A DNA stretch of 64,000 bases from Actinomycetes bacterium (GTDB lineage Bacteria; Actinomycetota; Acidimicrobiia; Acidimicrobiales; JAKAOS01), in the NCBI GenBank assembly GCA_021791675.1, contig JAJYWE010000004.1, positions 28,054 through 92,053 of the forward strand, given 5' to 3'. The translations under genes and the position numbers were made by a program. Shown here piece after piece: positions 23,765-53,303 of this stretch (the stretch's first letter is position 1; every line of letters begins with the position of its first letter). The notes under the pieces were generated by a model, which did not search any database, was not told the origin of the DNA, and saw only the letters and a program-made list of their open reading frames with translations.

Positions 23765-25644
23765 GAGTCGCCACCTACACCCGGATCTCCACCGACGAGG
23801 CCCACCAGCCCTACTCCCTCGAAGCCCAGGCCACCCGGCTCGGCTCCTACATCGCCAGCCAGGACGACTGGAGCTTGGTCCGCCAGTTCTCCGACCAGGC
23901 CTCCGGGGCGAGCACCGAGCGCCCCGAGCTCACCCGGGCACTCACCGAGGCCCGAGCCGGACGCTTCGACCTGCTCCTCGTCTACCGGGTGGACCGCTTC
24001 GCCCGCTCGGTGCGCGGCCTGGCCACCCTCCTCGAGCAACTGGACTCTGCTGGGGTGGCGTTCCGCTCGGCCACCGAACCCTTCGACACCGCCACTCCCG
24101 CCGGGCGGATGATGGTCCAGATGCTCGGGGTGTTCGCCGAGTTCGAACGCTCGACGATCATCGACCGGGTCATCGCCGGCATGGAACGCAAAGCCGCCCG
24201 AGGCGAATGGTGCGGAGGGTCCCGCCCCTACGGCTACGCCATCGACCCGGCCAGCGGCCACCTCGTCCCCGTGGAGACCGAGGAGCCTGTCGTCAAGGCC
24301 ATCTTCGACCGCTACACCCGCGGCCGGGCGGGCTTGAAGACCGTCGCCAACTGGCTCAACACCCGAGGCCATCGCACCAAGAGCGGCAGGCCCTGGAACC
24401 ACATGGCCGTGCTCACCGTGCTGAGAAACCGGGCCTACCTGGGTGAGGTGTACTTCCGGGACGCCTACCACCCCGCCCCACACCGCCCGCTGGTCGATCC
24501 CGACACCTTCGATCTCGCGCAGCGTATCCTCGCCACCCGGGGCGAGGACTACTCGCATCGGGCCGCCAACGCCAGCGACTACCTGCTCGCCGGGCTGCTC
24601 ACCTGCGCCAGCTGCGGCAAGCGTTTCGTCGGCACCGCCGCGCATGGCAACCGCTACCGGTACCGCTACTACACCTGCTTCTCCCGCCAGCGCTACGGCA
24701 CCGACACCTGCAACGCCGAACGCCTCCCCGCCGACGCCCTCGACACCGCAGTCCTCAACGCCCTCCTCGACACCTACACCCGAACCGACCTGTTCGAAAC
24801 AGCATTGGCCGCCGGGGCCGAACGCGCCGGGGCGGTACGGGCCCAACACCAAGCCGAGCTCGCCGTCGTCGACGCCGAGGCCGCCCGGACCGAGGAGGCC
24901 ATCGAGCGCTACCTGCTCGCCTTCGAAGCCGGCACCCTGCCCGAAGCCCAATGCGGGCAGCGCATCCGGACCCTCGGCGCCAAAGCTGCCGAGCTGCGCA
25001 CCCGGCGGGCCGAGCTGGTCGATCTGATCGCCGCCGCCAAGGAACCCGAGGCGCAGCGGGCCACCCTCGACGCCATCCGCGACCACCTCGCCGAGACGAT
25101 CCGAAGTGGCGAGGCCGCCACCAAGAAGGGTCTCCTGCAGAACCTCGTCCACGACATCCGCGTCGAAGGCCGCCACAACATCAAGCCGTACTTCCGCCTA
25201 CCCATCGGGCCCACGACGGTGACGAACCCTGACCCCTCCACGCAGGGCCAAAAGGTTCGTACACCGTCAGGACCGGTGCCCCCGGCAGGACTCGAACCTG
25301 CGACCCGCTGCTTAGAAGGCGTCATGCGGGGCATCCACGGACGTCCAGGACCATATTTGGCCTGCCCAAACAGATCTGGAGCGAGCCCCACGACACCCCC
25401 TCTTCGCCCCCGGTGGCTACCGCTGTGGCTACCACCAACTCGACTACCTTCTCGGCTCAAGTCGTCGACCCCCTCGAGGCGGCTCGGTGCCAGTTCTCCC
25501 ACTCGTCGAGCCACCGTCGCTCCGCGGAGCGGCACGCCGCGACCCCGCTCGCCAACCCAGGGGGCCATCCTTCTGCGTAGCCCTGAGGGTCCTGCTCTCG
25601 CCAGCGCTGATAGTTGGCATTGTGGGCCGCTGTTCGTCTCCTGA
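23761..25644 (+). CDS. large serine recombinase (functional 3' end uncertain: the frame reads through the att/tRNA fragment)
   Basis: VATYTRISTDE nucleophile motif, a recombinase domain, a zinc ribbon CASCGKRF...YYTCFSRQRYGTDTC and a coiled coil. No stop occurs before 25642-25644. Confidence 0.9.
   Translation: MRVATYTRISTDEAHQPYSLEAQATRLGSYIASQDDWSLVRQFSDQASGASTERPELTRALTEARAGRFDLLLVYRVDRFARSVRGLATLLEQLDSAGVAFRSATEPFDTATPAGRMMVQMLGVFAEFERSTIIDRVIAGMERKAARGEWCGGSRPYGYAIDPASGHLVPVETEEPVVKAIFDRYTRGRAGLKTVANWLNTRGHRTKSGRPWNHMAVLTVLRNRAYLGEVYFRDAYHPAPHRPLVDPDTFDLAQRILATRGEDYSHRAANASDYLLAGLLTCASCGKRFVGTAAHGNRYRYRYYTCFSRQRYGTDTCNAERLPADALDTAVLNALLDTYTRTDLFETALAAGAERAGAVRAQHQAELAVVDAEAARTEEAIERYLLAFEAGTLPEAQCGQRIRTLGAKAAELRTRRAELVDLIAAAKEPEAQRATLDAIRDHLAETIRSGEAATKKGLLQNLVHDIRVEGRHNIKPYFRLPIGPTTVTNPDPSTQGQKVRTPSGPVPPAGLEPATRCLEGVMRGIHGRPGPYLACPNRSGASPTTPPLRPRWLPLWLPPTRLPSRLKSSTPSRRLGASSPTRRATVAPRSGTPRPRSPTQGAILLRSPEGPALASADSWHCGPLFVS
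25278..25320 (-). repeat. distal att repeat: 43-bp copy of the tRNA-Arg 3' half
   Basis: Identical to 53231-53273. Lacks the 5' half of the tRNA, so it is not a functional tRNA. Confidence 0.9.
25413..25433 (+). promoter_or_regulatory. putative integrase arm-type sites, distal end
   Basis: GTGGCTACC at 25413 and 25425 (12-bp spacing); related CGACTACC at 25441. Confidence 0.45.
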
Positions 25645-26044
25645 GCTCCTTCCAGGCGACGCAGGCCTGGTCCGCCGCGGTCGCGACGCCCGCCACCATT
25701 GTGCGAACGCTGTCCTCGATGGCCCGATGCCGGGTCTCGGGCTCACTTCGGCACCAACCGACCTCATAGCTGAGCATCCGAAGCTGTTCGGAGGCTTCGT
25801 ACAGCCGGTGGTAGTAACGAGTGCTCGCGTCCGCGCGAGCGATGTGGGCGACTCGGGAGATCTCCAGGATCGCTCGGTTCCGAGCAGTCACGACGGTTCG
25901 CGTGAGGATTGCGTTCGGCCACACGAGCTGTCGGTTCGGGCCGTCTTCCTGGTCCCTGATCCACGTCACCGACGCGAAGGAGGCCTCCACGAACGCAGAA
26001 AGCGCGTCGAGCGACTGTCGGTCGAGTTCGAGGGAGTGGGCCAT
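25457..26044 (-). CDS. hypothetical protein (cargo, lower-GC segment)
   Basis: 195-aa ORF with balanced, helix-rich composition (many E/R/W/Y). No family recognised. Confidence 0.55.
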   Translation of the reverse strand: MAHSLELDRQSLDALSAFVEASFASVTWIRDQEDGPNRQLVWPNAILTRTVVTARNRAILEISRVAHIARADASTRYYHRLYEASEQLRMLSYEVGWCRSEPETRHRAIEDSVRTMVAGVATAADQACVAWKELRRRTAAHNANYQRWREQDPQGYAEGWPPGLASGVAACRSAERRWLDEWENWHRAASRGSTT

Positions 26045-26087
26045 GTTCGTGTTCGATCAGACAACAGGGGACTGGAGACACCCCACC

Positions 26088-26780
26088 TCAGGAGACATGC
26101 ATTCGCAGATCCCGAGAGGACCGAGCATCGCTAACCGAGAAGAGGATTACATCTACAGTCGTTTCAGCGGTATTCGACCCCTGCACACCCACTCCATTCA
26201 TCTCGGAGCTACCAAAGGCCCGAAGGGTCCATGTCCCAGCAGCTTCTTCCGGCAAGCCGGTATACGTTCGATTGCAGGAGTTCGAGGTGTCGATGAGATC
26301 CCTGCATGGGGATAGGTTGACTTCATAAAGCGTGCCATGAGGATCGATCAGATCAAGGGTCAGTGTGACTGTTGCGGGTGAAGACTGTTTTCCGACCCAC
26401 GCGTTCGAGGTTATCGCAGCGTTGATCACGTCGATTCCACCCACGAGCCCAAACCTCACATATGCATTGCTGTAGCCTCCTCCTCCGCCACAGCACTCGA
26501 TCTGAGGATGAACAGCAGGCTGCGGGAGAGTGGCGGCACTCGCAAGAGTTGGCTGGGCGAGCAGCAGGATGGCCGACGTCATAAGTGACGTCGCAACCAC
26601 TAGAGACGTTCTTACCAACGCATGCCCTATGGTCTGTAGAGATGCCGGAATGCGCCCGCTCGGCATATGCGCTTGGTGGTTGATTGTACGAACTCCGACC
26701 CCCACGACACTCCTCCTTCTTCCTCTTGGGCGTGTGGTAACAATGGCGCCCATATATGGGCAGCCCCAAAACCAGCTCAA
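26088..26780 (-). CDS. secreted hypothetical protein (cargo, lower-GC segment)
   Basis: Hydrophobic signal LVVATSLMTSAILLLAQPTLASA, Cys-containing beta-rich body. Start ambiguous (26780, or ATG at 26666). Confidence 0.5.
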   Translation of the reverse strand: MSWFWGCPYMGAIVTTRPRGRRRSVVGVGVRTINHQAHMPSGRIPASLQTIGHALVRTSLVVATSLMTSAILLLAQPTLASAATLPQPAVHPQIECCGGGGGYSNAYVRFGLVGGIDVINAAITSNAWVGKQSSPATVTLTLDLIDPHGTLYEVNLSPCRDLIDTSNSCNRTYTGLPEEAAGTWTLRAFGSSEMNGVGVQGSNTAETTVDVILFSVSDARSSRDLRMHVS

Positions 26781-26972
26781 CAGCTCAGTGCAATACTGTT
26801 CCGAAGGTAGCGCTCGTCGGCCGGCAGGTCAAACAAAAAGCGCCCGGGCATGACCAAGCTCGATCAACGCCCTTACCGCAGGGCGGAGTCAAAGTAGCTA
26901 AGGAACTGCTCTGACCTGGACTGACGCGTCGGCACTGGCGCGAGACCCCTCCCGGGTGCTACAAGCTGGGGG

Positions 26973-28544
26973 GTGAGCGACAGACCAGAGCACGACTTCG
27001 GTTCCCTCGTCGTCCGGTTGGTCGCGCCGTCCGAGGTCGCGCGCTTCAACGAGCTGCTCGACCAGCACCACTACCTCGGGCACAACCTCGTAGGTCGCGT
27101 CCTTCGCTACGTCGCCTGCGAGGACGACGAGTGGGTTGCGCTGCTCGGCTTCGGCTCGCCGGCGCTCAGTCTCCGCCCCCGGGAGGACTTCATCGGCTGG
27201 AGCGAGCAGACCAAGAGCCGCCGCCTGCGCTTTGTCTTGAACAACCAGAGATTCTGCGTCCTCGACGACCGGAGGCGGAAGAACCTCGCCTCTGCGGTGC
27301 TCAGCCGCACCTTGAAACGCGTGAGCGAGGACGCACAGGCTGCCTACGGCGATCCGGTGCTCCTGGTCGAGACCTTCACCGATCCCACTCGCCACCGAGG
27401 CACCTGCTACAAGGCCGCCAACTTCGTGCTCGTCGGACAGACCTCTGGCTACGGGCGCAAGGGTGGTTCGTGGGTCCGCCACGACGTCGTGAAGTACGCC
27501 TGGCTCTACCCGCTCGAAAAGCGCGCCCGGGCGATGCTCGCGGCTCCCTTCGACCATCCGCTGCTCCAGTCAGTGATGAAAAGGAGGAAGGACGTGGCTG
27601 ACCTCAACACCGTGGTCATCGACGGCGAGGGTGGGTTGTACACGCGGCTCTCTGCGCTACCTGATCACCGAAAGCCGAAGGGCGTGCGCCACAAGCTCGC
27701 GGCGGTGCTCCTCGTCTGCGCTGCGGCCATCCTCTGCGATTGCAAGGGCCCGGCCGAGATCGCCGAGTGGGCAGGGGACCTCGATGACGATGCACGAGTG
27801 AGACTCCACTGCCGGCGACAGCCGATGACCGGACACCTGGTCGTGCCGAGTGAGTCGACGATCCAGCGCACACTTCGCCGCGTCGACAAAGAGGCGTTCG
27901 ACCGGATCATCAACGAGACGGTCCACCAGGCCCTCACCAAGCGCGCCGCCGATGCGTTGGCGCACAGCCAAGAGGTGACCGAAGACGAGGCGGAGCCAGG
28001 GGCGGCCGGTGACCACGACACCGGCCACGACGCGCTGATCGCCCCGGTCGACCTCGACGAGGCCGACGAGGACGAGGCCGACAACGACGGCGAGGCCGAC
28101 GTGGCCGCACCTCGCTGCCTCGCGGTCGATGGCAAGAGCCTGCGCGGCGCGATCCGAGACGACGGACGCCTCCTGCACCTGCTCTCGGTGCTCACCCAGA
28201 AGGAGCGGGTGGTGATCGGCCAGGAGGAGGTGGACCACAAGACGAACGAGATCAACCACTTCGCGCCGCTGCTCGCCCCGCTCGACATCAAAGGGAACCT
28301 GGTCACCGCCGACTCGTTGCACACCCAGCGCAAGCACGCCCACTTTCTCGTGGACAAGAAGAAGGCCGACTTCCTGTTCTACGCCGACCTGAACCAGCCG
28401 AAGCTCTACGAGGCAATCGCCGGGCTGGAAGAGGAGGACTGGTCGGAGCCCTACACCGAGACCGACAAGGGACACGGCCGGATCGAGACCCGCACGATCT
28501 GGACCTCGACCAAGATCGGCAAGAGCATCACCTTCCCTCACGTC
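26973..28544 (+). pseudogene. ISAs1-family transposase with N-terminal DUF4338-like domain, 5' part (interrupted)
   Basis: LLVETFTDPTRHRGTCYKAANFVLVGQTSGYGRKG is DUF4338-like; CLAVDGKSLRGA is the ISAs1 DDE region. The frame breaks after ...ITFPHV at the IS3 insertion. Confidence 0.75.
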
Positions 28545-28574
28545 TGGGCTTCCCCCCGCAGGCCGGACACCGAT

Positions 28575-29738
28575 CTATGCAGCTTCTTGGTGTTGCAATG
28601 ACTCCTCGTACTCCCTGGGGGACATGTAGTTCAAAGAGCTGTGAAGTCTTTCGGTATTATACCAGCAGATCCACTCAAAGATGGCGAGACGGGCTTGTTC
28701 TCGTGTGGTAAAGTGTTCGTCGTCCACGAGCTCTCGTTTCAACGATGACCAGAGGCTCTCAGCCATGGCATTGTCGTAGGATTCGCCGACGGTCCCCATG
28801 GACTGTGTGATCCCCATCCGTTTGCAGCACTCCCGGAAGAGGCTCGACGTGTACTGGGAGCCGTGGTCGGAGTGGAAGATGGTGCCGGGGAAGCGTTTCT
28901 TGTTCCGGGTGGCTGCTGCGGCGGCGAGGGCGTCCTCGCACAGCTCTGCCCGCATGTGGTCGGCGATCGACCAGCCGATCAGCCCACGGGTGCAACAGTC
29001 GAGGACGGAGGCGACGAAGACCCACCCCTCGTCCGTCGGGACGTAGGTGATGTCGCCCAGCCAGAGCGCATCGGGCCGCTCTGCAGTGAAGTTCCGGCCC
29101 ACCAGGTCCGGTGCTGATGTGGCGTCGGGGTCGCGCCGGGTGGTGCAGAACTTGCGCCGTCCGCTCTTGCCGGCGATCCCGAGCTCGCTCATGAGCCGGG
29201 CCACGCGCTTCTCGTTCAGCTTCCACCCGGCCCTGCGCAGCTCGGCGGTGATCCTCGGGGCCCCGTAACGGCGCCGAGCGTGACGCCAGGCGTCGACGAT
29301 GGCATTCGCCACGACGGCCTCGTCGATCAGCCCCTCGGAGGGTGTCCTCCCCCGGGAGCGCCACGAGTAGTAGGCGGAGGAGGAGACCCTGGTCACGCTG
29401 CAGAGCAACCGGACCGGGAAGTTCGCGGTCTCGGACTCGATGAAGCGGTAGATCCGCTCACGTTCTCCGCCCGGGGACTCGAAGCCAGCCAGGCGACGAG
29501 CGATCTCGGCCTCTGCCTCAAGGGTGCTCACCCGCCGGAGCAGCGCCTCGATCCGGCGTCCCTCGCCGCCACGAGCTCCTTCGCTCATCTCGACTCTCCC
29601 TTCACCCAGTAGCGCGTGAAGCGCTTCAGGATCTCGATCTCGTCCTCGAGCTCGCGGATCCGCTTGCGCAACCGGGCCTCCTCCTTCGCGGCCTCTTGCT
29701 CTCCAGAAGAAGCCTCTTGCTTCGCGGCCCGGATCCAC
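28575..29738 (-). CDS. IS3-family transposase OrfB frame (expressed via -1 frameshift from OrfA)
   Basis: rve/DDE region: [16 protein letters not shown]...[11 protein letters not shown]...DNAMAESLW. The frame is -1 relative to orfA and has no independent start. Confidence 0.8.
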
Positions 29739-29872
29739 GTCCCGAGGGAGGTGTCCGAGACCCCCAACTCGCGCGCCACATCCTTCAGTGGCCGGCCGGA
29801 GCTCCGGTAGAGCGCCACGGCATCTCGCTTGAACTCGTCCGTGTAGCGGCGGGTCGTCGGTCCCTTCCCCAT
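29585..29872 (-). CDS. IS3-family transposase OrfA
   Basis: [43 protein letters not shown], then a leucine-zipper-like tail. Confidence 0.85.
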
Positions 29873-29935
29873 TTCCCTATCCTCCTCCAGCTGTGCTGGT
29901 TCGGGGTGTCCGGGCTATGGGGGGAGGTTCACGTC

Positions 29936-30280
29936 ACCCAGCTGGTGCGCATCATGCGCGAGGTAGACGACGCTCGGACCAGGACCGCACGGCACACCGA
30001 GACCGTCTACGGGGTGACGAGCACCAACGCGGGAAGGCGGGTGCTGCTGGCGGCCAGCAGGGGCCAGTGGCAGATCGAGAACGGCCTGCACTGGGTGCGG
30101 GACGCGACGATGGGAGAGGACGCCTCCAAGGTGCGTTCGGGCTCCGCTCCCCGGGTGCTCGCCACCCTCCGCAACCTGGCGATCGGAATCCTCCGCCTGG
30201 CCGGTGTCGGAAACATCGCCAAGGGCCTGCGTCACCTCTCGCGTCGACCTGCAATCGCGCTCAGCTTGCTCGGGTTGTAG
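29936..30280 (+). pseudogene. ISAs1-family transposase, 3' part
   Basis: [44 protein letters not shown] is the ISAs1 C-terminal signature. It joins in frame to 28544 once the IS3 and one CGTC copy are removed. Confidence 0.75.
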
Positions 30281-30564
30281 CTTCACCGCGGTCAACGACG
30301 CAACGACCGGCACGCGGCGCTTCGTCGCGCGCCTTGGGGCTGACCGCTCCGTTCCATCACCCGTCGGCGGCGTGTCGATCTCTCCGGGATGCGCTCGATG
30401 TGGGGCCTGCGAGATCCCTGGCTCGGCCGCACCACGGCGCGCTATCTACATCCGTGTACTTTGACTGATTCCCTGGCCCTTACCGCCGCTCACCTAGGTG
30501 GAATGCATGATAATACCCCTTCTAACGCACACTGACGTGCATGATAACATGATAGGCTGCCTGC

Positions 30565-31554
30565 ATGAGCGTCACTCCTGTCGACACCACTCGTCCCACC
30601 CTTGCCGTGCCTCTCTTGGCCGCCGACCGCACCGCAGTCGAGGCCGCCTTGGCGGCGGCGCGGAGCCCGGCGACCCGCCGAGCCTACGAGAGCCAGATGG
30701 GTGCATGGACGCGGTGGGCCGGTGAGCGGGGCTATCCGCTCGGCCCGCCGGCCGAGCCCGAGCACCTCGCCGGATGGCTGGTGTGGCTCGCGCAGCAAGG
30801 GCGCTCGGCGAGCAGCATCGGCCAGGCCGCAGCGGCTATCTCCGCCGCCCACGCAGACGCCGGCATCCCCGATCCGACACAGCACCAAGGCGTCCGGCTC
30901 ACCCTCGCCGGCATCCGGCGCCAGGTCGGCACCGCACCCCGCCGGCTGGCGCACCCGCTCACCACAGACGAGATCCGCAGGATCGTGGACGGGATCAACC
31001 GTGACAGCCTGCGTGGCAAGCGGGACAGCGCACTGGTCCTGATCGGCTACGCGGGCGCGCTGCGCCGGAGCGAGCTGGCCGGCCTGAGGACCAGCGACCT
31101 GTCCATCAGGCCCGCTGGCATCGTCGTCACCATCCGCAGGAGTAAGACCGACCAGGTCTCCGCCGGCCAGGTCGTCGGGATCGCCCGTGGGCGATCACCT
31201 GTTACCGATCCCGTCGCCGCCGTGCGCGACTGGATCGGTGCGGCTGGACTGGATGGCGACAGGTGGCTCTACCCGACCATTGCGTGGTCGGACGCGCGGC
31301 CGCTCTGCCGGCCGATCCGTGGCGAGGACGTGTGCCGCATCCTCGTGCGCCGCGCAGCGGCGGTCGGACTCGGCGACCTGCCGATAAGCGGTCACTCACT
31401 CCGGGCCGGGCACGCCACCACGGCCGCCCGGGCGGGAGTGCCCGCCGACCGTCTGGCCCGGACGACGCGGCACCGCAGCCTGTCCAGCCTCGCTCGTTAC
31501 GTCCGACCGGCCGAGGCGCTGGCCGACACCAGCTCGGCCGATCTCGGCCTGTGA
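30565..31554 (+). CDS. tyrosine site-specific recombinase (second one in element B)
   Basis: SAM-like N-terminal domain; catalytic region ...LRRSELAGL...GHSLRAGHATTAA...RHRSLSSLARY (R, HxxR, Y). Confidence 0.8.
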   Translation: MSVTPVDTTRPTLAVPLLAADRTAVEAALAAARSPATRRAYESQMGAWTRWAGERGYPLGPPAEPEHLAGWLVWLAQQGRSASSIGQAAAAISAAHADAGIPDPTQHQGVRLTLAGIRRQVGTAPRRLAHPLTTDEIRRIVDGINRDSLRGKRDSALVLIGYAGALRRSELAGLRTSDLSIRPAGIVVTIRRSKTDQVSAGQVVGIARGRSPVTDPVAAVRDWIGAAGLDGDRWLYPTIAWSDARPLCRPIRGEDVCRILVRRAAAVGLGDLPISGHSLRAGHATTAARAGVPADRLARTTRHRSLSSLARYVRPAEALADTSSADLGL

Positions 31555-32261: not shown

Positions 32262-32272
32262 GCGGCCGGCGA

Positions 32273-33939: not shown

Positions 33940-33958
33940 GGGCGACCTCCTCGCCTGA

Positions 33959-38227: not shown

Positions 38228-38231
38228 GATC

Positions 38232-41999: not shown

Positions 42000-42053
42000 C
42001 GTGTCTCCTATGAGGGCGGGCGATCTGCCCGCCAACCGGTTTTTTGGAGATTT

Positions 42054-42098
42054 CTTGCACAGACGGCCTCGCCCGATTGGCGAGGCCGTCTGTGCAAG
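42054..42098 (-). terminator. perfect 20-bp-stem hairpin starting 1 nt after the pilin-like gene stop
   Basis: CTTGCACAGACGGCCTCGCC-cgatt-GGCGAGGCCGTCTGTGCAAG. No U-tract on the minus-strand transcript. Confidence 0.6.
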
Positions 42099-42099
42099 A

Positions 42100-42702: not shown

Positions 42703-42797
42703 GTCGGTGGTCCTTTCCTGTTCGCCGTCCCCGACGGGGCCGGTCATATAGAGATCGGAACGGGCCAGTGCGACACACTGTCGCACCGCCTGAGCTG

Positions 42798-45700: not shown

Positions 45701-45980
45701 CGAGAGCGCTCTGCTTACGTCCACGCCCGGGAGCGTCGCGCTCGCTCCCGGGCGTGGGGCAGATGCCGACGTAGACGTTCTCACCGCCGAGGTGCGCCAC
45801 CTCGGCGGTGAAGCGCTCAACGTCCGCCAGGGGCACGCGGTGGCCGCGTGCCGAGAACCCGGTGGCCGCGGAGCACAGAGCGATAAGCGCGTCGGCTGGA
45901 TAGGCCGACGCGAGCGGTGCCCAGATGTGGGCGTGGTGGTCGGCAGCGGTGCGCAGGTCGAGTGCAGTGCGGGTGGCCAT
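42798..45980 (-). CDS. primase-polymerase fused to P-loop helicase-type domain (replication initiator)
   Basis: Trimmed to ATG at 45980. Prim-pol motifs VYVGICP, LVADVDV and GGGCHIWLPL; Walker A GLIGEPDSGKSLLL in the centre. Confidence 0.75.
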   Translation of the reverse strand: MATRTALDLRTAADHHAHIWAPLASAYPADALIALCSAATGFSARGHRVPLADVERFTAEVAHLGGENVYVGICPTPGSERDAPGRGRKQSALGYPALVADVDVAAPGHAAQNLPTREEADELIAALLGDRPRMRVETGGGCHIWLPLAEPLASDDPRQLAQRWKAAWVAAFQVAGRHLDAGVLADPARVLRVAGTTRRKPGCDSLPVEIVAAPGGRISLDELDAWLPPLQPRPARQATRRLPERRVAHADNDRPGDRLAAAVPVSVLLERVLGWERVGGADGQSHWAEPAEPHGSAVQAATYEDPDGIERLTVFSASACERLGLEPSSSLDSFAFVAAAYCGGDYRLAAQVARFAPDEDTLVRLLADHADCSPADLRAVLAVPDRLPPIVLAEAESPVADAALGEALGAPDGTAIALPGDCIAVVGSARHGLWHRSWSRGLDGKSIPTDDLVADWIAWRPEHRTTAGVDEQGRPQIGIDEYAVELIRRDGRRYWRDGLSAADSVSPARVVDALNAGVALPVMPQDAQRVGNMLRVLGHAEQAVTTRAALNGWLWQDDHATWAAPGGSINARGVDHDTAVAPPVGSDDDALAGVAAATGMPPALAPLDEAVLAIPAWLGIAPDRPEVGLALLGAVFAAPLRLATRPSIGLIGEPDSGKSLLLAATAAWTAAVAVQKGVATLSIQSSSTIGALVLAGWHRDGVVYADDYRLTDHDGRANETTTEVLSGLLQAAYGGTTGAKGTRRGGLRSGREPRTTVVWTGEITPSDAAVLQRTVLIEIGPGDLRLASDNPPIDAWRARWAVPGLARSLIGHYLAWLAAQADAGGGLDAISAIGDGLWRPAYAALGHGRSGETVAAISAGIGALRRCLAEMGVGEDVLPPSARVRELCAALARSQAAAHQDADPGRRVLAAVRDMLAGKQGHLLGADGRCPLAGEEQSARESRPLRLGWRLSESDGPSGTTYRWDACGRHLGWLSRDGRHVLLTPTGVRAARETAGMRGLADRQVARSLAALVVPGTTPTGRAPAALGVRDARRCWVFPASAFDLDDIEVEPEQLDRREF

Positions 45981-46053
45981 GTGCACTATGAGGGCGGCGA
46001 GACGGCGCCTCACCCACCACGCGGCGAAAAAACACCCTACCTGACCTGCTGCC

Positions 46054-46530
46054 CCACGCAAAACCGCAGGTCAGACTATACGTTTTTTGGGTTTGGGACG
46101 GTTTGGACGAGTTGGGGCAAGACCCGTCCCAAGGTTTTTTGCCCTCTGAGCTGGGCGTCTATAAGGATAAATGTGTGTTGGGACAAGATCTCCTGTAGTA
46201 GAGAGGTCGCGTATAGAGACTCTCTCTCGATCACGATCCGCGATCCGCGATCTCCCCTATATACCCCCCCCTCTACCCCCAGAATCCGTCCCAACGTCCA
46301 AAACCCCCAAAACGTATAGTCTGACCTGCGGTTTTTGCGTGGACGGCCCTTGTCCCAACTCGTCCAAAAAGCGTCCCAGGAGCTCCCGATGCAGCAGTTT
46401 TTTGGCGGATCAACCAGGCTGTCCCAAAACCCCAAAACGTATAGTCTGACCTGCGGTTTTGCGTGGGACGGCCCTTGTCCCAACTCGTCCCAAAACGCCC
46501 AGATCCGTCCCAAAAGCTCCTGGTGCCCAG
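46054..46530. repeat. ori/clt-like region: GTCCCAA iterons, 33-bp repeat in three copies, AT-rich GATC-rich core
   Basis: AAAACGTATAGTCTGACCTGCGGTTTT(T)GCGTGG at 46309-46342 and 46434-46466, inverted at 46054-46088. At least 11 GTCCCAA/TTGGGAC copies. AT-rich core at 46158-46280. Confidence 0.7.
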
Positions 46531-46537
46531 TTTTGAG

Positions 46538-46785
46538 CGACCCCCTGTTTTTTTGCTGAGACAGCTGAGACAGGCAAAAAGGGCACTTGACCTGGGGTGC
46601 AGTGCCCGAGGGGTGTCACACCCGGCACGGAGAGCCGGGGCACCTCAACCGCCCCGCGCGTTTTCCGACGCGACCCCCCTGTTTTTTGCTGAGACAGCTG
46701 AGACAGGCAAAAAGGGCACTTGACCTGGGGTGCAGTGCCCGAGGGGTGTCACACCCGGCACGGAGAGCCGGGGCACCTCAACCGC
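46538..46785 (+). repeat. two near-identical 115-bp direct repeats (46538-46652, 46671-46785)
   Basis: The copies differ only in C/T homopolymer lengths. Each contains GCTGAGACA x2 and the palindromes GGGCACT..AGTGCCC, GGGTGT-C-ACACCC and CCGGC..GCCGG. Confidence 0.85.
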
Positions 46786-47166
46786 TCAGGCCCGCCCGAA
46801 TAGCCGCACCGCGAGCGTCTGCCGGGCGACCCCGAGGAGCGACGCGATGGCGAGTAGCCGCCCGGAGCGGCCCGGCGCTCCGGGCGGACCGACAACCTCG
46901 CGCGCCCGCGCCTCCGCTGCCCGGCTGAGGCGATCTGCGGCCGCCAGCGCGACCGCCGCTTGGACGAGCTCGTCGTCCAAGGCAGCGGGGGTGTTGTGCT
47001 CACCGCCTCGGTGTCGGGCGCCCGCCGCCGCGGCGGTGAGCGCCTCGGGCGGCACGACGGACGCAGCACTGTGGGCGGCGTCCGTGAGAGCGCGTTCGGC
47101 AGCGTCAGCCGCCTGGGCGACGGCGGGCTCGATCACGGGGTGTGGCGGTCGTCGGGATGGTGGCAC
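46786..47166 (-). CDS. putative HTH regulator
   Basis: C-terminal RLLAIASLLGVARQTLAVRLFG is HTH-like. Divergent from the small-protein genes across an operator-rich gap. Confidence 0.4.
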   Translation of the reverse strand: MPPSRRPPHPVIEPAVAQAADAAERALTDAAHSAASVVPPEALTAAAAGARHRGGEHNTPAALDDELVQAAVALAAADRLSRAAEARAREVVGPPGAPGRSGRLLAIASLLGVARQTLAVRLFGRA

Positions 47167-47173
47167 GGTTCAA

Positions 47174-47258
47174 TAGTAGCAGATGCCTACTACCGGGTGC
47201 AGGGCGTTGGTAGTTCTCTGCTACTATGGCGTTGACACCGTAGTAGTAGAGTGCTACT
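47174..47258. promoter_or_regulatory. TAGTAG/CTACTA inverted-repeat operator array
   Basis: TAGTAGCAGATGCCTACTA (47174-47192), GGTAGTTCTCTGCTACTA (47209-47226), GTAGTAGTAGAGTGCTACT (47240-47258). Confidence 0.55.
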
Positions 47259-47279
47259 CGTACAGAAGGAGGCCACGAG

Positions 47280-47606
47280 ATGAAGACGTTGGTTGCAATC
47301 CTGCTCGCCAGCGCTGGCTCGGGATGGGCGGCGTTCCAGCTCCTGCACGGCCAACTCGAGGCAGCCGTCGCGCATGCGGCGCTCGTCTCCGACGCTCGCA
47401 ACGCAGCGCTGTCGCTCGCCGGCGCTCAGCTCTCGACCGCCGCGGCGGCGTCGGCGCTGGCGGCCAGGGCCATGCCGTCGGCGGCCGGTCGCGTGGACTT
47501 CAGCGCTGCGCCTGACACCAACGCGGTGGTCCCCTGGGCGATCACCGCGTGCGAGGTCGGCACCCGCGTGTGCGCCACCTGGTCGCCCGCAGCAGCCAAC
47601 AGTTGA
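47280..47606 (+). CDS. small secreted/membrane protein, paralogue 1
   Basis: AGAAGGAGG RBS, N-terminal hydrophobic segment, conserved C-terminal WAITACEVGTRVCATWSP. Confidence 0.6.
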   Translation: MKTLVAILLASAGSGWAAFQLLHGQLEAAVAHAALVSDARNAALSLAGAQLSTAAAASALAARAMPSAAGRVDFSAAPDTNAVVPWAITACEVGTRVCATWSPAAANS

Positions 47607-47669
47607 TCCGTCCGCTTTGGAGGGGCGGGCGAGGTGCCGCCCTCATAGGTAGTAGAAGGAGGCCACAAC

Positions 47670-48002
47670 ATGAAGTACCTGATCTGGATCCTCGGGATCA
47701 CGATGGCGCTGGTCTGGATCTCGCTCTGGCTCGTACGGGCGGCGCTCGGGTCGCAGACCTTGGCGACGCCCGCTCTCGTCACCGACGCGCAGCAGGTGAG
47801 CTACGCGGTCGCCGGCGCGCAGGCGCAGACCGCGACCGCCGCGACCGCCCTCGCCAACGCCGCGGAGCCGGGGCTGCGCGGGATCATCTCCTTCCGGGCA
47901 TCGCCCGATGCGGGCGGCGTGGCGGCGTGGGCGATCACCGCGTGCGAGGTCGCTCATCCCACCGTGTGCGCCACCTACTCGCCCACCGAGGCGATCGGCT
48001 GA
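47670..48002 (+). CDS. small secreted/membrane protein, paralogue 2
   Basis: Same RBS context (GTAGTAGAAGGAGGCCACAAC-ATG); C-terminal WAITACEVAHPTVCATYSP. 11-mer CCGCCCTCATA at 47637-47647. Confidence 0.6.
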   Translation: MKYLIWILGITMALVWISLWLVRAALGSQTLATPALVTDAQQVSYAVAGAQAQTATAATALANAAEPGLRGIISFRASPDAGGVAAWAITACEVAHPTVCATYSPTEAIG

Positions 48003-48525
48003 AGTCCCCACCGACCCTGGTACCTGCACATCACCCCCAACCCCCTGCACCCAGCTCCGCTGTGACGACGGGGCGTCTCGTTCCACTGCGCCCACTGCGA
48101 GACCGGTTCGGTGCCGGTTGCCGCCCTGTCTGGCACCGCTGATCGCCGGGGCTCGGCTGTGGTGTGCACGCTGTGACGGAGGTGCGTGATAAGCTCTCGC
48201 GCGGAGCTACCGCGTGAGCGCGAGAGCTTGTCCAGCACCCCTCGCCCGCGCTGCCGGCCCCGCACCGAGAGCATCACGGGATCCGAGCGCTGCCCGGTCC
48301 GAGGGGCGTCAGACCTCACCGATCCGTTGCCAACGCTGTGTCGCGCTGCGGGCTCGTGCCGCCTCGTGGCGACCCCGCTGCGGTCGCTGCGTGACAGGTC
48401 GGGCTGTTGGTCCCCTCGGGGATGTACGGGTTTGCGGGGTGGGCCTGCGCCTCGCTGACACCCGGCCGTCGCTCCGAGCAGACGGCTCAAAGCACTGGTT
48501 GCGGGCGGGGTGCGGGTTGGCCGCG

Positions 48526-49461
48526 CTACCGCGGCGCTGTGGCGAGCGCGGCGAGGCGCTCGCGGACGGAGGGCGGCGTCGCCGGATCGAGCACGACGGC
48601 GGCGCGCATCGCGATGTCAACGATCTCGCCCGGCTGGGCGAGCGGCCCTGCAAGATCACTCGCCGCGGCGAGCAGCGCCGACAGCGAGCGCCGGGTGTCC
48701 GCGAGTGCGAGCGCAGCGGCACCAGCGCGCCAACGCTGGCGGTCCTCAAGGCCGGCCGCCAGCACCGACCACGCAGCGCGCTGGTGTTGGCGGGCGTTGC
48801 CGCCGGGCGACCATGACCGCGGCCTCCGGCCGCGCAGCTCCGGTGGCCAGTCCCCGCGGTGATCTGCGTCCGCGGGAGCCGAGAGCCATGCGTCCGGCCA
48901 GGCCCCGGCGACCGCACCGAGCGTGATGGCGGCATCCACTGCGTGCCCGGCGACGCGCGCGCTCACGGCACCGCGTTGCGCGCCCGGCAGCCGCACCGGG
49001 CTCGGCCCGACCAAGCTCTCGACGGCGACTAGGGAGGGGCAGCGCTCGCTGTGGCGGTCGAGCAGCGCCGTGATCTCGGCGACGACCCGCCGAGCATAGA
49101 GAGGGGCACCTGCGTGCCAGCCGACTCGCTCGGCGGGTCGTCGATCGATTGTCACTCCGTCGGCGACGGCGAGCGACGGCACTCCGTCGCTCGACCAGGC
49201 GAGGCGAGCGAGGACGACGCCGGTGTGGCTCGCTCCGGGGTCGACGCCGACGGCGGCGGCGGCGCGGTCCGGACCGGCCTTGCGCCTCGCCTCGCTCTCG
49301 GCCGAGGCGAGCAGCGCGGTCGCTGCGTCGCGCATCCGCTCCGACGCGCCGGGCGTCGACAGGACCAGGCGCGCGTAGTCGGCCAGCGCCCCCGTCGGGG
49401 GCGCTGGGAGGCCGGCGGCCCCGGCCTCCCCCTCGAAGACACTGCGCGCAAACCCGGTCAC
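48526..49461 (-). CDS. RuvC-like (RNase H fold) protein, putative
   Basis: GTG at 49461 with the 11-mer 4 nt upstream. VGVDPGASHTGVVLARL and LVAVESLVG resemble RuvC Asp/Glu motifs. Confidence 0.45.
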   Translation of the reverse strand: MTGFARSVFEGEAGAAGLPAPPTGALADYARLVLSTPGASERMRDAATALLASAESEARRKAGPDRAAAAVGVDPGASHTGVVLARLAWSSDGVPSLAVADGVTIDRRPAERVGWHAGAPLYARRVVAEITALLDRHSERCPSLVAVESLVGPSPVRLPGAQRGAVSARVAGHAVDAAITLGAVAGAWPDAWLSAPADADHRGDWPPELRGRRPRSWSPGGNARQHQRAAWSVLAAGLEDRQRWRAGAAALALADTRRSLSALLAAASDLAGPLAQPGEIVDIAMRAAVVLDPATPPSVRERLAALATAPR

Positions 49462-49491
49462 ACCGTCTATGAGGGCGGCGGCAGTCGCCCC

Positions 49492-49817
49492 TCAACCACT
49501 GGCTCCCCAGAGCGCCGTCCCGACGCGGGCCGCTGCGTCGGAACGCACCTCGCCAACAAGGTGCTGGTAACGCCGCGTGGCGGTGGGCGAGGTGTGCCCG
49601 AGGAGGAGTCCCGCCGTCGTAGTCGTCACCCCCAAGGCGAGCAGCAGCGTGGCCGCCGTGTGCCGAGCGTCGTGCAGGCGCCGCGGCTCGACCCCGGCCT
49701 CCAAAAGCAGCGCCTGCCAGCGCTGCCAGTCCCACCGCGCGCCGGCGGGGCCCCCCAAGGGACCCGGAAAGACCAGGTCCCAACCCGTGCGGGACGGGTC
49801 CCACCGGGACCCGAGCG
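49492..49817 (-). pseudogene. int: tyrosine integrase of element B, 3' (catalytic) fragment
   Basis: LHDARHTAATLLLALGV...LLGHTSPTATRRYQH carries the HxxR, H and Y motifs. It joins in frame to 51898 when the IS and one CTAG copy are removed. Confidence 0.85.
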
Positions 49818-51897
49818 CTAGGTGGGCGGTGTCTTTCGCGAGCCCGGAGACTCGCGATCCAAAGCCCCGCGTGAGAGAATGACAGGCATGGAGTTCTCCT
49901 GGTCGAAGGCCCTTCGGTGAGCCTCGGGGTGGCGAGCCGCCAGGGCAGCCTGCTCGACGACATCGAGGCGTTCTGCGATCGGACGCTGCCCGTGAACTCG
50001 ATCTACTCGCTGTTGCATCGCGAACGCGATCGGCTCTTCCCCGACGAGCTGTTCGCGGATCTCTTCTCCGATCGGGGCCGGCGCAGTGTGCCGCCGTCGG
50101 TGGTGGCGACGGTGATGGTGCTCCAGCGCCTGGAGGGACTCTCCGATCGTGAGGCGGTCGAGCGCTACGCCTTCGACACCCGCTGGCGCTACGCCGCGGG
50201 GGTGGGTGGCTACGACGGCGACGGGTGGACGAGCTTCGCGCACACGGTGCTGGTCGACTTCCGCGCCCGGCTCGCGGCCTCCGACGATCCCCGGCGGATC
50301 TTCGCGGTGACGCTGGACGCGGCGAGCGAAGCGGGCCTCGTCGGCGCGAAGAGGGTGTTGGACTCGACGCCGCTCTACGACGCGGTGGCGACCATGGACA
50401 CCGTCACCCTGATCCGCTCGGCGATCCGCTCGGTGCTGAAGGCCGCCGAGGGCTCCTTGGAGGCGGAGCTGTCTTCGCTGATCCGAAGCGGGGACGACGA
50501 CGCGAGCGCGGCGAAGCCCCGGATCGACTGGGACGACGAGAAAGCCCGCGAGGCACTGATCGACGCGGTCGCGAAGGACGGCCGTGCCATCCTGACCCAC
50601 TTCGACGGAGCGCACCTCGAGGGGCCACTCGCCGAGGCGGTCGAGCTGTTGGCCACGGTCTTGGGCCAGGACGTCGACGTCGGCGACGACGGGGTGTTCC
50701 GCATCGCGAGGCGGGTGGCGCCTGACCGGGTGATCTCGACGGTCGATCCCGAGACCCGCCACGGCCACAAGACGCAAGCGAAGGGCTTCGACGGCTACAA
50801 GGGCCACGCGGCCATCGATCCCGACAGCGAGCTCATCACCGCGACCACCGTCACGGCCGGCAACGTCGGCGATGCTGCGGCGGCAGCCGAGCTGATCGAG
50901 GATCTCACCGGCACCGACGAGGCGGACAGCGACACCGGCACCGCTTCGGACAACCCCGAGGCGCCGAGCACGGGACAGCTGGACGGGGAGCCCGCCCAGG
51001 CCCGACCGAACCGCCAGGGCGGTGGCGGTGGCCGGCGCCGGGCGAAGTCGGCCAAGAACGCTGCGGCAGCCCGGACCGCTCGGGCAGCAGCGCGCGAGGC
51101 ACGCCGCCGAGCACGAGCGAAGCGTCGCAGGGACGCATCGTCCCGGCTCGGCGACGATGCCCCGAAGGTCTACGGTGACGGCGCGTACGGCTCGGGGGAG
51201 TTCCTCGACCACCTCGCCCGAGCGGGCATCGAGCACCGCTGCAAGACCCAGCGGCCGGTCAACGCCACCGGGCTCTTCGCGAAGGACCGCTTCGCGATCG
51301 ACCTCGCCGCCGAGACGGTCACCTGCCCCGCCGGCGAGGTGGCCCCCATCCGCCGCAACCGCAGAGGCGACGGCGTCGCCCGCTTCGCCTCCGCGTGTCG
51401 CAGCTGTCCCCTGCGAGAAGAGTGCACCACATCTCCCGGCGGGCGGAGCATCACCGTGGGACGCTACGAGGCCCACCTCGCCGAAGCCCGAGCGAAGGCC
51501 GCGGATCCCGCATGGCTCGAGGACTACCGAGCCACCCGCCCGAAGGTCGAGCGCAAGCTCGCACACCTCATGCGACGCCACCACGGCGGACGGCGTGCCC
51601 GGGTGCGCGGCAGCGCCAAGGTCGGTGCCGACTTCAACCTCCTCGCTGCCGCGGTGAACCTCGCCCGACTCGCCGTGCTCGAGCTCACCTCCACTCCGAA
51701 GGGATGGGCGGCGGCGATGGACTGAGAGACCCGAGGGATGGAGCAGGGAAGGAGCCCACGTCCATGGGGCTCCGTCCTCGCAGCCCTCGACGCCACTTGT
51801 CACCAGAGCCCACCCCCTCCCAGCATCGAAGCCACCAGGAGCTGCCATGACCGTGACACCGTGTTCACCAGCCAGCCGTTTCACACCGCCCACCTAG
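49818..51897 (+). mobile_element. IS1182-family insertion sequence (coordinates include both flanking CTAG copies)
   Basis: Perfect 15-bp inverted termini CTAGGTGGGCGGTGT (49818-49832) and ACACCGCCCACCTAG (51883-51897), with CTAG at both junctions. Confidence 0.85.
49917..51725 (+). CDS. IS1182-family DDE transposase
   Basis: N-terminal LLDDIEAFCDRTLPVNSIYSLL...VMVLQRLEGLSDREAVERYAFDTRWRYA and the DDE region STVDPETRHGHKT..GYKGHAAID. Confidence 0.85.
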   Translation: MSLGVASRQGSLLDDIEAFCDRTLPVNSIYSLLHRERDRLFPDELFADLFSDRGRRSVPPSVVATVMVLQRLEGLSDREAVERYAFDTRWRYAAGVGGYDGDGWTSFAHTVLVDFRARLAASDDPRRIFAVTLDAASEAGLVGAKRVLDSTPLYDAVATMDTVTLIRSAIRSVLKAAEGSLEAELSSLIRSGDDDASAAKPRIDWDDEKAREALIDAVAKDGRAILTHFDGAHLEGPLAEAVELLATVLGQDVDVGDDGVFRIARRVAPDRVISTVDPETRHGHKTQAKGFDGYKGHAAIDPDSELITATTVTAGNVGDAAAAAELIEDLTGTDEADSDTGTASDNPEAPSTGQLDGEPAQARPNRQGGGGGRRRAKSAKNAAAARTARAAAREARRRARAKRRRDASSRLGDDAPKVYGDGAYGSGEFLDHLARAGIEHRCKTQRPVNATGLFAKDRFAIDLAAETVTCPAGEVAPIRRNRRGDGVARFASACRSCPLREECTTSPGGRSITVGRYEAHLAEARAKAADPAWLEDYRATRPKVERKLAHLMRRHHGGRRARVRGSAKVGADFNLLAAAVNLARLAVLELTSTPKGWAAAMD

Positions 51898-52809
51898 GCG
51901 GGCCGCTGCCTGCTCGGCCCGGTGCTGGGCGAGCTCCACCACGAGCGGACCGGGTAACCCGAGCAGGCGGTGCCCGGCTGCGGATTTCGGCTCGGCAAGG
52001 TCTGGGCCGCCGCCCCATCGGGCGGGGCAGTGGCTGGCTCCGGGGCCAGGCGCCCTGCAGCTCGGCGTCCCGAGCGCCGCCCCCGCACAGCCGTGCCTCC
52101 ATGGGCGCCACTGCAACTGACATCGCACGGCCACGGTCTCACGGTCGAGGTCGAGGTCTTGCCAACGCAACCCAAGCGCCTCCCCCTGGCGGAGCCCGAG
52201 TGCCAAGGCGACCGACCAGCGAGCGCCTTGCGGACCACGGCGGGCCGCAGCAAGCACACGGCGGGCCTCGTCGACGGTGAGCGGCTGGGGCTCTCGCGGT
52301 GGCGGCGTGCGTGGCAGGCGTGCCCGCGCGACAGCGTGCGGTGCCGGGAGCAGGCCGTCGCGCACGGCCGCCGAGAGAGCGGCAGAGAGCGTCCGACGGA
52401 TGTGCGTGATGCTCGCTCCGCCGAGGCCATCCGCCAGTAGGCGTCCGTATAACTGCTCGACGTCGCTGGGACTGAGGCGGTCCAGGCGTCCGCCCGACGC
52501 CCCGAGACGCCGGGCGTCCAAACGGTAGCCGCGCATCGTCGTTGGGCGGACGCGCTGCTCCTGCCCGGCAATCCAGTGCTCCAACCACTCGGCGACGGTC
52601 GGCATCCGGCCGTCCCGGCGGCAGCCCGCGTCGCGCGACTGCTCAATCTCCCGGACCTTGGCCGCAACAGCCGAGCGCGTGCGCCCCCGGACGTGCTTCC
52701 GACGGCGCCGCCCGTCGGGACCGACACCGAGGGAGATCCACCCCTCCCAGCCTCCATCCACCGAGCGGTGGATGGAGGACCGCCCATCGGCCCCTTTCGC
52801 GGAGCTCAT
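51898..52809 (-). pseudogene. int: tyrosine integrase of element B, 5' fragment
   Basis: ATG at 52809 (1-nt overlap with the xis stop). Arm-binding-like and SAM-like N-terminal domains, then the Arg region ALALGLRQGEALGLRW. Truncated by the IS. Confidence 0.85.
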
Positions 52810-53099
52810 CAGGCAGCGCCGTCGGTGAGCTCCGCGACCAAGGCATCGACTGCTGCCCGCGGGACCAAACGCCGGCGCCCCGGTCGCGTCGAGGCGAGGC
52901 AGCCAGCCGCAATGAGCTCCCACACGCGGCTCCGGCTGACGCGCAGCTCCGCCGCAGCCTCCTCGACGGTGAGCAGGGTGTGGGCGGCTACCGGCGGTGC
53001 CTCGCCGGCAGCCTCCAGCGCAGCTTGGGCAGCCTCCAGCGCCGCCTGGGCGGCGGCGACGGCCCGGCGGGCGGACTCGACAGCATTCGGAGAAACCAT
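52809..53099 (-). CDS. xis: excisionase-family DNA-binding protein
   Basis: LLTVEEAAAELRVSRSRVWELIAAGCLASTRPGRRRLV is the MerR-type excisionase HTH. ATG at 53099. Confidence 0.75.
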   Translation of the reverse strand: MVSPNAVESARRAVAAAQAALEAAQAALEAAGEAPPVAAHTLLTVEEAAAELRVSRSRVWELIAAGCLASTRPGRRRLVPRAAVDALVAELTDGAA

Positions 53100-53148
53100 G
53101 TCACCCCTGTGCCGCGCGGTGCTGCTCGACAGTCTACGGGGCGGGGCG

Positions 53149-53168
53149 GTGGCTACCACGTGGCTGCC
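53149..53168 (+). promoter_or_regulatory. putative integrase arm-type sites, tRNA-proximal end
   Basis: GTGGCTACC at 53149 and GTGGCTGCC at 53160. Same motif and orientation as at 25413/25425. Confidence 0.45.
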
Positions 53169-53229
53169 AACGACGGAGCTTCGGACCGTCTCAGGAGCAC
53201 CACACCGGCACTGACCTGCCCTTGGTGAG

Positions 53230-53303
53230 CGCCCCCGGCAGGACTCGAACCTGCGACCCGCTGCTTAGAAGGCAGCCGCTCTGTCCAGCTGAGCTACAGG
53301 GGC
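53230..53303 (-). tRNA. tRNA-Arg (anticodon UCU)
   Basis: Hand-folded cloverleaf: acceptor GCCCCTG/CGGGGGC, D arm GCTC/GAGC, anticodon arm GCTGC-CTTCTAA-GCAGC, T arm GCAGG-TTCGAGT-CCTGC. No encoded CCA. Confidence 0.9.

Follow-up and report, generated by a model that had tools for sequence, protein, structure and literature searches.

A probable FtsK-type integrative element stacked on a type IV secretion-type element at a tRNA-Arg gene of an uncultured actinobacterium

The stretch of actinobacterial DNA analysed here (hereafter the window; 64 kb of contig JAJYWE010000004.1, 73% GC) carries a tRNA-Arg(UCU) gene at which two different mobile elements are stacked. The interval 25278-53273, termed element B, is supported from its sequence as a discrete, integrated, plasmid-like mobile element bounded by a tRNA-derived repeat, and element A adjoins it on the left. 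Taken as a whole, the evidence makes it probable that B is an integrated plasmid-like conjugative element of the FtsK type, akin to the integrative and conjugative elements of actinomycetes (AICEs). As read from its genes, B qualifies under the operational AICE definition (PMC3218068), with the caveat that its replication protein (Rep) is recognised by remote homology only. The copy in the window is, judged against uninterrupted alleles, a defective derivative of a 22.3-kb element into which three insertion sequences (ISs) have inserted. Genes were called with a script based on GC content at third codon positions, and the calls were checked against those of identical metagenome contigs and against domain scans; contigs used for comparison are given L-numbers, and most of them come from metagenome samples and were retrieved by exact-protein look-ups.

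The ends of B are marked by a perfect 43-bp direct repeat, positions 25278-25320 being identical to 53231-53273. A sequence comparison within the window that tolerated three mismatches returned these two copies only, with none expected from 100 shuffles, and a chance or dispersed repeat was rejected on these grounds. The right-hand copy (attR, 53231-53273) lies within the functional tRNA-Arg(UCU) gene that is the integration target of B, on the minus strand at 53230-53303 (ARAGORN, anticodon TCT in the DNA; Rfam RF00005, 68.4 bits; start at 53229 or 53230, end at 53303). In tRNA orientation, the repeat begins with the two final nucleotides in the anticodon stem's 5' arm, takes in the anticodon loop and extends as far as the final base of the acceptor stem; it ends at that base because the discriminator differs between the two copies (G in the functional tRNA, A in the distal copy). 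The left-hand copy (attL, 25278-25320) is a partial, distal copy of the tRNA 3' part. The sublocation read here from the sequence, at the anticodon loop, is a classical one among attachment sites in tRNA genes (Williams 2002, cited in PMC3218068). An initial annotation of the window had proposed both the 43-bp identity and its correspondence to the anticodon-stem-to-acceptor part of an intact tRNA-Arg, and ARAGORN, Rfam and direct reading agree with it on both counts.

Both flanks of the repeat vary between contigs. On the tRNA side, contigs whose PurK proteins are 100% identical carry either B (L001, L004 and L093) or a different element, C (L002, L003 and L005), and in the latter group homology to the window begins at 53229. 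Element C (L002:1-7242; L005:1-8317) encodes an integrase of 406 aa that is 45% identical to that of B, an HTH_17 excisionase of 112 aa, a 365-aa open reading frame (ORF) and a cargo that looks defence-like, comprising a 699-aa DEAD/Helicase_C_2 protein together with AAA_5 and repeat-rich proteins; the captured contigs stop short of its distal end. The tRNA end supplied by C encodes CCA, whereas that supplied by B does not. On the distal side, the 43-mer of B is followed by the recombinase end of A (window and L119-L122), by the end of a divergent serine-recombinase element (L123) or by G-CCA and unrelated DNA (L125), and these three neighbours diverge precisely at the outer edge of the 43-mer. 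These alternative neighbours on both sides mark the interval as a discrete and variable unit.

Inward from the tRNA gene, B comprises xis, int, four ORFs, an iteron region, rep, four further ORFs, the FtsK gene, a surface-protein gene and a sortase gene; past the sortase gene follow two small ORFs, a second tyrosine recombinase with a coupled ORF, an IS composite and two distal ORFs. The placement of xis and int just inside the tRNA-proximal end, as annotated at the outset, is correct for an intact xis (52809-53099, minus strand, 96 aa; Pfam HTH_17, E=1.5e-11), while int proved to be split in two by a 2,072-bp IS. The N-terminal fragment of int (51894-52809, minus strand) is called as a 314-aa product, and the C-terminal fragment (49492-49821, minus strand) carries the catalytic RHxxR...Y region (Pfam Phage_integrase profile positions 111-168). 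The interrupting element is of the IS1182/IS5-like type (49822-51893, plus strand; Pfam DUF772, DDE_Tnp_1 and DDE_Tnp_1_6) and is flanked by inverted repeats GTGGGCGGTG and a CTAG target duplication; its junctions, compared with the uninterrupted 413-aa int of L004, lie at about codon 305, upstream of the catalytic region. Excision of this IS in silico yields a 413-aa integrase that is identical to that of L004 and has a PF00589 score of 55.7 bits. In the protein collection, 15 contigs carry the truncated 314-aa product and 6-7 the intact integrase, sample ERZ27237336 being an example of the int-intact population.

The distal part of B has received an ISAs1-family element of 3,596 bp (26880-30475, plus strand; Pfam DruA, DDE_Tnp_1_assoc and DDE_Tnp_1) with an 11-bp target duplication, GCCCTTACCGC, which is missing from B in L107 and L109, where the insertion site is empty. 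Nested in its transposase gene is an IS3-family element with inverted TG..CA ends (28545-29931, minus strand; orfA 29585-29872 and orfB 28575-29588; rve, HTH_21 and HTH_Tnp_1). The low GC content at 25-30 kb of the window coincides with this IS-rich end, and B without its ISs measures 22,270 bp. Since int is split upstream of its catalytic residues and the ISAs1/IS3 composite has also been inserted, this copy of B is probably locked in place. As a separate observation, the ISAs1-family transposase (26973-28601 and 29906-30280) has an N-terminal match to the Druantia protein DruA (PF14236, 80 bits) and a faint Mom-like match; such a DruA-like N-terminal fusion is unusual for an IS transposase.

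The candidate DNA translocase (Tra) of B is a 580-aa FtsK/SpoIIIE-type ATPase (38232-39974, minus strand) that scores 55.9 bits on PF01580 against a gathering score of 24, matches PHROG 1358 at E=9e-27, and finds EccC, TcpA and FtsK among PDB sequences, each at E ~1e-12. Adjacent to it are the genes for a 1422-aa surface protein with Pfam fn3 domains (33959-38227, minus strand) and for a 309-aa sortase (33010-33939, minus strand; Pfam Sortase, E=3e-10, also called in L105). The translated C-terminus of the surface protein reads as a PAHTG motif, a hydrophobic segment and an RRR tail, which resembles the sorting signal of a sortase substrate. Searches of Pfam, NCBIfam and PHROGs returned no relaxase, VirB4 or other component of a type IV secretion system (T4SS) in any ORF of B, precomputed Pfam matches for B genes on other contigs likewise included no relaxase or VirB4, and no recognisable origin of transfer (oriT) was found in B.

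Ghinet et al. (2011, PMC3218068) define an AICE operationally by att repeats that enclose an integrase, a Rep and a Tra protein with an FtsK domain. B has the recombinase at one end, att repeats in a tRNA gene and the FtsK-domain protein, with no relaxase or VirB4. Its Rep has no Pfam match to the types used in that definition (RepSA, RepAM PF12307 and Prim-Pol PF09250), the assignment to the archaeo-eukaryotic primases (AEPs) coming from PHROG matches, motifs and a structural model. The combination that marks a Streptomyces-type TraB, namely a match to the TraB equivalog NF041214 with 8-mer repeats of the clt/TRS kind (the cis-acting locus of transfer and TraB recognition sequence), was not found, and the repeat cluster of B tracks Rep across relatives; judged by sequence, B is not of the Streptomyces TraB type in the strict sense.

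The strongest argument for self-transmission comes from relatives. Proteins 40-50% identical to the FtsK protein occur in Georgenia, Frigoribacterium and metagenomes, and contig L113 holds an element with a Rep homologue (34% identity), an FtsK homologue (47%), a Big_9/cadherin-like surface protein, a resolvase, xis, and int against a tRNA-Ser gene. No T4SS genes, VirB4, type IV coupling protein (T4CP) or relaxase lie within 10 kb on L113. The set of Rep, FtsK, adhesin and int-xis thus recurs at different tRNA genes and in different hosts, which argues that B is self-transmissible rather than borrowing the T4SS of A.

The Rep protein (1060 aa; 42798-45980, minus strand) matches no Pfam or NCBIfam family and belongs to a family of four members, itself and three relatives, among 5.8 billion proteins. 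Its N-terminus matches a DNA polymerase/primase (PHROG 2478, E=8e-15), residues 632-779 match a primase-associated domain (PHROG 1139), and the DxD, GGGxH and D..R..R..GT..K motifs are invariant in all four sequences, as is a Walker A motif. Foldseek comparison of an AlphaFold model with a mean predicted local distance difference test score (pLDDT) of 58 returned the SCCmec Cch helicase (E=9e-8) and the AEP domains of S-2L PrimPol and RepB' (probability 0.99-1.0). These remote homologies support the reading of Rep as a predicted N-terminal AEP primase-polymerase joined to a P-loop helicase domain.

Beside rep lies a non-coding, AT-richer region of about 800 bp (45981-46785) that is a candidate origin of replication. 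It contains, within 420 bp, 9 of the 11 GTCCCAA heptamers of the window, as well as three perfect 25-mers (AACGTATAGTCTGACCTGCGGTTTT) and a 133-bp tandem repeat. The Rep homologues of L113 and L092 adjoin 12-copy clusters of related heptamers, CTGTCCA and TGTCCCA, respectively. L092 is a T4SS-type element with TrwC and T4CP genes and has no FtsK gene within 10 kb of rep, so the repeats go with Rep and not with Tra. A role of the GTCCCAA cluster as a TraB clt was rejected for this reason, and a candidate replication origin is the better reading of the region from the sequences compared. The 133-bp tandem repeat itself (46537-46785) varies in copy number: the window and L093 have two copies, whereas L001, L004 and L094 have one copy less.

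Element A, left of 25278, encodes a VirB4-like ATPase (P-loop_TraG/AAA_10), a coupling protein (TraG-D_C/TrwB) and a Replic_Relax protein (169 bits), along with Tad-type genes, two N6/N4 methyltransferases, a small resolvase and a large serine recombinase; matches for its PrgI, TrbL_3 and T4SS_pilin proteins were obtained in contig L011. The VirB4-like ATPase, coupling protein, relaxase-type protein and integrase are together the gene set of a T4SS-type integrative and conjugative element (ICE). No third att-like tRNA core was found in 1-25277 within three mismatches, and the left end of A lies outside the window. The serine recombinase gene (23761-25644, plus strand; Pfam Resolvase, Recombinase and Zn_ribbon_recom) is located against the distal repeat, as first annotated, although it does not stop there: the ORF, which lacks a stop codon ahead of the repeat, crosses the distal tRNA fragment in antisense and terminates at 25644. 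The alignment with homologues spans some 81-83% of the ORF and ends near residue 515, beyond which the homologues have tails of very different length, because the conserved element end AAAAGGTTCGTACACCGTCAGGAyCGGT directly adjoins the tRNA acceptor end GCCCCCGGCAGG in the window, in L104 and in L101/L102. In L100, too, the conserved element end abuts the tRNA 3' end. Recombinases 94% (L104) and 78% (L101/L102) identical to that of A abut intact genes for tRNA-Arg(UCU) and tRNA-Arg(CCG), respectively, the latter followed by argS and lysA. A is therefore likewise an element of a tRNA-Arg end, and A and B are stacked; by analogy, the arrangement of L104, in which such an element stands against an intact tRNA, can serve as a picture of the site before B. 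The annotated stacking of a T4SS-type on an FtsK-type element is upheld by the gene content of the two, by the variable flanks and by these relatives of A. Integration at a tRNA 3' end had been attributed to tyrosine integrases as the standard route; this applies to B, whereas A uses a serine recombinase.

Several observations weigh against the reading of B as an FtsK-type conjugative element. Its FtsK protein matches TcpA-type T4SS coupling proteins equally well, reaches only 32.7 bits on NF041214 (NCBIfam; cut-off 800), which places it far from Streptomyces TraB, and is 24-30% identical to FtsK-like proteins of plasmids (tblastn). For Rep, the blank in Pfam extends to Prim-Pol, no PDB sequence was matched even with a four-sequence profile, no homologue was found by tblastn among 72,556 plasmids, and the pLDDT of the model denotes mediocre quality. 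Most ORFs of B have no recognisable family, and no Spd, Pif/Nudix or Kor-type genes were recognised among them. Neither a bare tRNA-Arg contig of this species nor a circular attP junction, two signs of mobility that the initial annotation had proposed to look for, was found among the metagenome contigs fetched. The read-through recombinase predicted for a site empty of B is absent from the protein collection by exact look-up, a weak negative in that a single nucleotide difference or another start call would hide the protein. A scan of the genome collection with PurK for relatives with an empty site gave a best identity of 54% among the matches listed and no usable relative; the best relatives among these matches are Actinomycetota (identity ≤55%). 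When the intact 73-nt tRNA-Arg gene was used to scan metagenomes, three contigs were retrieved, each belonging to another organism.

Alternatively, B might be an integrative mobilisable element reliant on a foreign T4SS, for example that of A, with the FtsK protein acting as a TcpA-type coupling protein and the surface protein as a mating adhesin. The TcpA coupling protein of C. perfringens is matched as well as FtsK or EccC, Clostridium plasmids are among the tblastn matches, B adjoins A, and a Rep homologue resides in the TrwC/T4CP element of L092. A sortase with a surface adhesin is typical of Gram-positive T4SS conjugation. Such an element would, however, be one with neither a relaxase nor a recognisable oriT; the same Rep and FtsK core stands in L113 at least 10 kb from any VirB4, T4CP or relaxase; and in L125 B lies beside sequence other than A. 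On these grounds we regard mobilisation by a foreign T4SS as unlikely.

We give a similarly low, if anything slightly lower, probability to B being a non-conjugative integrated replicon or genomic island that Int and Xis can excise and Rep can replicate, its FtsK protein serving segregation or, like EccC, secretion. The NCBIfam FtsK and type VII secretion EccC scores are similar to that of TraB, the lack of recognised Spd and Pif genes would fit, and B has been seen in one species population only. Set against this, an integrase, a Rep and an FtsK protein between att repeats form the operational AICE signature (PMC3218068), and homologues of Rep and FtsK occur together again in another host and at another tRNA gene in L113, a co-occurrence that argues for horizontal spread of the pair. 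Finally, A and B might move as one composite, with the 43-bp copy at 25278 as a relic in its interior: tandem arrays are known to be mobilised in cis (PMC9513070), and the left end of A, and with it any third repeat, lies beyond the window. The three different outer neighbours at the distal core of B, the A-type recombinase cassettes that stand without B against intact tRNA-Arg genes, and the different recombinase families of A and B make a composite very improbable.

For B as an FtsK-type conjugative element we infer the following course of excision, replication, transfer of double-stranded DNA and mating-cell adhesion. In the intact 22.3-kb element, Xis and the tyrosine integrase would recombine the two 43-bp att cores, which would release a circle and restore the junction between tRNA-Arg and element A. 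The circle would replicate from the iteron origin by means of its own AEP-primase/helicase Rep, and the single FtsK/SpoIIIE-type ATPase would pump B as double-stranded DNA into a recipient, where the giant sortase-anchored surface protein may hold the mating cells together. B would then re-integrate into the part of a tRNA-Arg(UCU) gene that extends from the anticodon loop to the 3' end, its own copy regenerating the tRNA. In the window copy, the IS within int would block the excision step. A may have arrived before B or after it, the simplest order being that A came first and B followed. More speculatively, B could be the founder of an undescribed family of FtsK-type integrative conjugative elements in actinobacteria other than Streptomyces, defined by an AEP/helicase Rep, TGTCCCA-type iterons, adhesins (sortase-anchored in B) and a tRNA-Arg hot spot shared with a large, widespread family of large serine recombinases that target tRNA 3' ends and whose reading frames run across the attachment site, so that their C-terminal tails switch with the state of integration; this is a tentative proposal that we would sooner doubt than adopt.

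The remaining genes of B offer few clues to function. Between the int fragments and the iteron region, 46786-49461 holds four ORFs with no family match, of 116 aa (minus strand), 108 and 110 aa (plus strand) and 311 aa (minus strand); the 108- and 110-aa products, from 47280-48002, are adjacent paralogous secreted proteins with a common C-terminal WAITACEV...VCAT(W/Y)SP. Between tra and rep, 39974-42786 (minus strand) encodes a 285-aa membrane protein and proteins of 268, 122 and 228 aa, of which the 268-aa protein has weak helix-turn-helix matches and the 228-aa protein an N-terminal transmembrane segment; none of the four has a significant match in Pfam, NCBIfam or PHROGs. The second tyrosine recombinase (30565-31554, plus strand, 329 aa; Phage_integrase 50 bits) and its coupled 236-aa ORF (31551-32261, plus strand) are a candidate multimer-resolution system, and gene calls place the recombinase in all B variants. 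At the distal end lie ORFs of 195 aa (25457-26044) and 205 aa (26088-26705), both on the minus strand, called also in L105, L107 and L119 and with no Pfam match.

The serine recombinase of A belongs to a conserved cassette (window 20150-25300; L100, L104 and L101) that also includes the small resolvase, a MarR-like regulator, the two N6/N4 methyltransferases and two small ORFs. The rest of the A-type elements differs altogether, with a T4SS in the window, an extracytoplasmic function sigma factor, an ATP-binding cassette transporter and defence-like genes in L100, acetyltransferases in L104 and tyrosine recombinases in L101. The recombinase has roughly 1,700 homologues. In 92 of 123 of them, a G[LIFV]EP tail follows the conserved KVR..GS.PPAG and corresponds to antisense translation of the acceptor and T arms of a tRNA. 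The 3' end of this gene family thus appears to read into tRNA genes, so that the protein tail would depend on the integration state; recurrent tail classes among the homologues suggest different tRNA targets, and a recurrent tail not of tRNA type, PPAGAGPVLRR.VRL, may represent the unintegrated form. In L100 (11490-11560) the recombinase end keeps only GCCCCCGGCAGGG of the tRNA and is followed by CCACGCAGATGGGAAAC, and the same 17-mer follows the distal core of B in L125 (1897-1960), on the opposite strand relative to the tRNA piece. The shared 17-mer could be the result of an inversion or a secondary-site event.

Variation was also observed on the right flank. Contigs L006 (right flank 99.99% identical), L007 and L008 have no tRNA-Arg to the left of tRNA-His, and homology to the window (compared over 53304-53620) ends at the tRNA-His 5' end, where L006 (1-1480) has a low-GC SurE gene and L007 (1-1625) a glyoxalase gene. 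A single-nucleotide difference in the tRNA-His D-loop, C in the window and T in L006-L008, is perfectly linked to the left context; by these comparisons the tRNA-His 5' end is a second variable boundary. Further right, a Mu/Tn7-like transposon (58901-63443) with TGT...ACA ends and a 5-bp target duplication, ACTGG, lies in a LysE-family gene and encodes an rve/Mu-transposase, an AAA_22 ATPase and a DUF6431 protein; L004 and L007-L010 lack this transposon and have an intact LysE of 214 aa. The ImuB-like gene (56313-58142) contains a 30-bp in-frame tandem repeat at 56449-56598, with GKLGAGRSDT-like units, and its product measures 592, 599, 602 or 609 aa among near-identical contigs, some of the 10-aa differences fitting a change in repeat copy number.

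Overall, in one uncultured actinobacterial population the tRNA-Arg gene serves as a landing pad for at least three unrelated elements (B, C, and the serine-recombinase elements A and A'), and the locus catches B in decay through inserted ISs at a time when intact alleles are still in circulation. The known dynamics of accretion and decay thereby gain an example from outside Streptomyces. The rare Rep-iteron replicon family could be tested as a vector origin, and the large tRNA-targeting serine-recombinase family, of a class reported as rare, is potentially useful in that its attachment sites are naturally readable.

B was compared with pSAM2, SLP1, pMEA300 and AICEs identified in silico (PMC3218068; te Poele et al. 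2008, PMC2440964). Like these, it is integrated at the 3' part of a tRNA gene, which its direct repeat regenerates, has int and xis at the tRNA-proximal end, carries its own replication protein and a single FtsK/SpoIIIE-domain protein instead of a T4SS and relaxase, and is about 22 kb long once the ISs are removed. It differs in that its FtsK protein is not a TraB equivalog, its Rep, an AEP-helicase fusion without a Pfam Prim-Pol match, comes from a very rare family, recognised Spd, Pif and Kor genes are lacking, genes for a sortase, the 1422-aa surface protein and another tyrosine recombinase are present, the copy is disrupted by ISs, and the host lineage is an unplaced actinobacterial one of high GC content. 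Rep was also compared with helicases and primases of self-replicating islands (SCCmec Cch, RSF1010 RepB', and PrimPol-helicase fusions of phages and viruses). In its predicted fold it resembles the Cch helicase and AEP primase domains; it has no detectable sequence similarity to solved structures, and the fusion and the TGTCCCA-type iterons are specific to a small family.

The arrangement of A and B is an ordinary kind of mobile-element pile-up, accretion at tRNA-Arg being already documented. Streptomyces arrays at tRNA-Arg include defective AICEs (Sav3708/Sav3728, PMC3218068; a natural population, PMC9513070), and the gene is shared there, in tandem or alternately, by elements whose integrases are 39-88% identical (PMC3218068, PMC9513070). 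Here too, unrelated elements are stacked or alternate, with the integrases of B and C within that range and decayed copies in the population; unlike in the Streptomyces arrays, the partner A is of the T4SS type and has a large serine recombinase, rather than being a second AICE with a tyrosine integrase. T4SS-type ICEs are reportedly scarce in actinobacteria, and integration into tRNA genes by serine recombinases is reportedly rare (PMC3429521, PMC3218068), cited cases being Mycobacterium AICEs in tRNA-Leu and phage phiRSM1 in tRNA-Ser (PMC3218068, PMC3429521). The pairing of A with B therefore belongs to a known phenomenon, in one of its less common forms. As in those Mycobacterium AICEs and phiRSM1, the serine recombinase of A sits at the element end against a regenerated tRNA 3' end; unlike them, A targets tRNA-Arg (UCU or CCG), its recombinase ORF runs antisense into the tRNA, and its cargo is of the T4SS type in the window and quite different in the close relatives L100 and L104.

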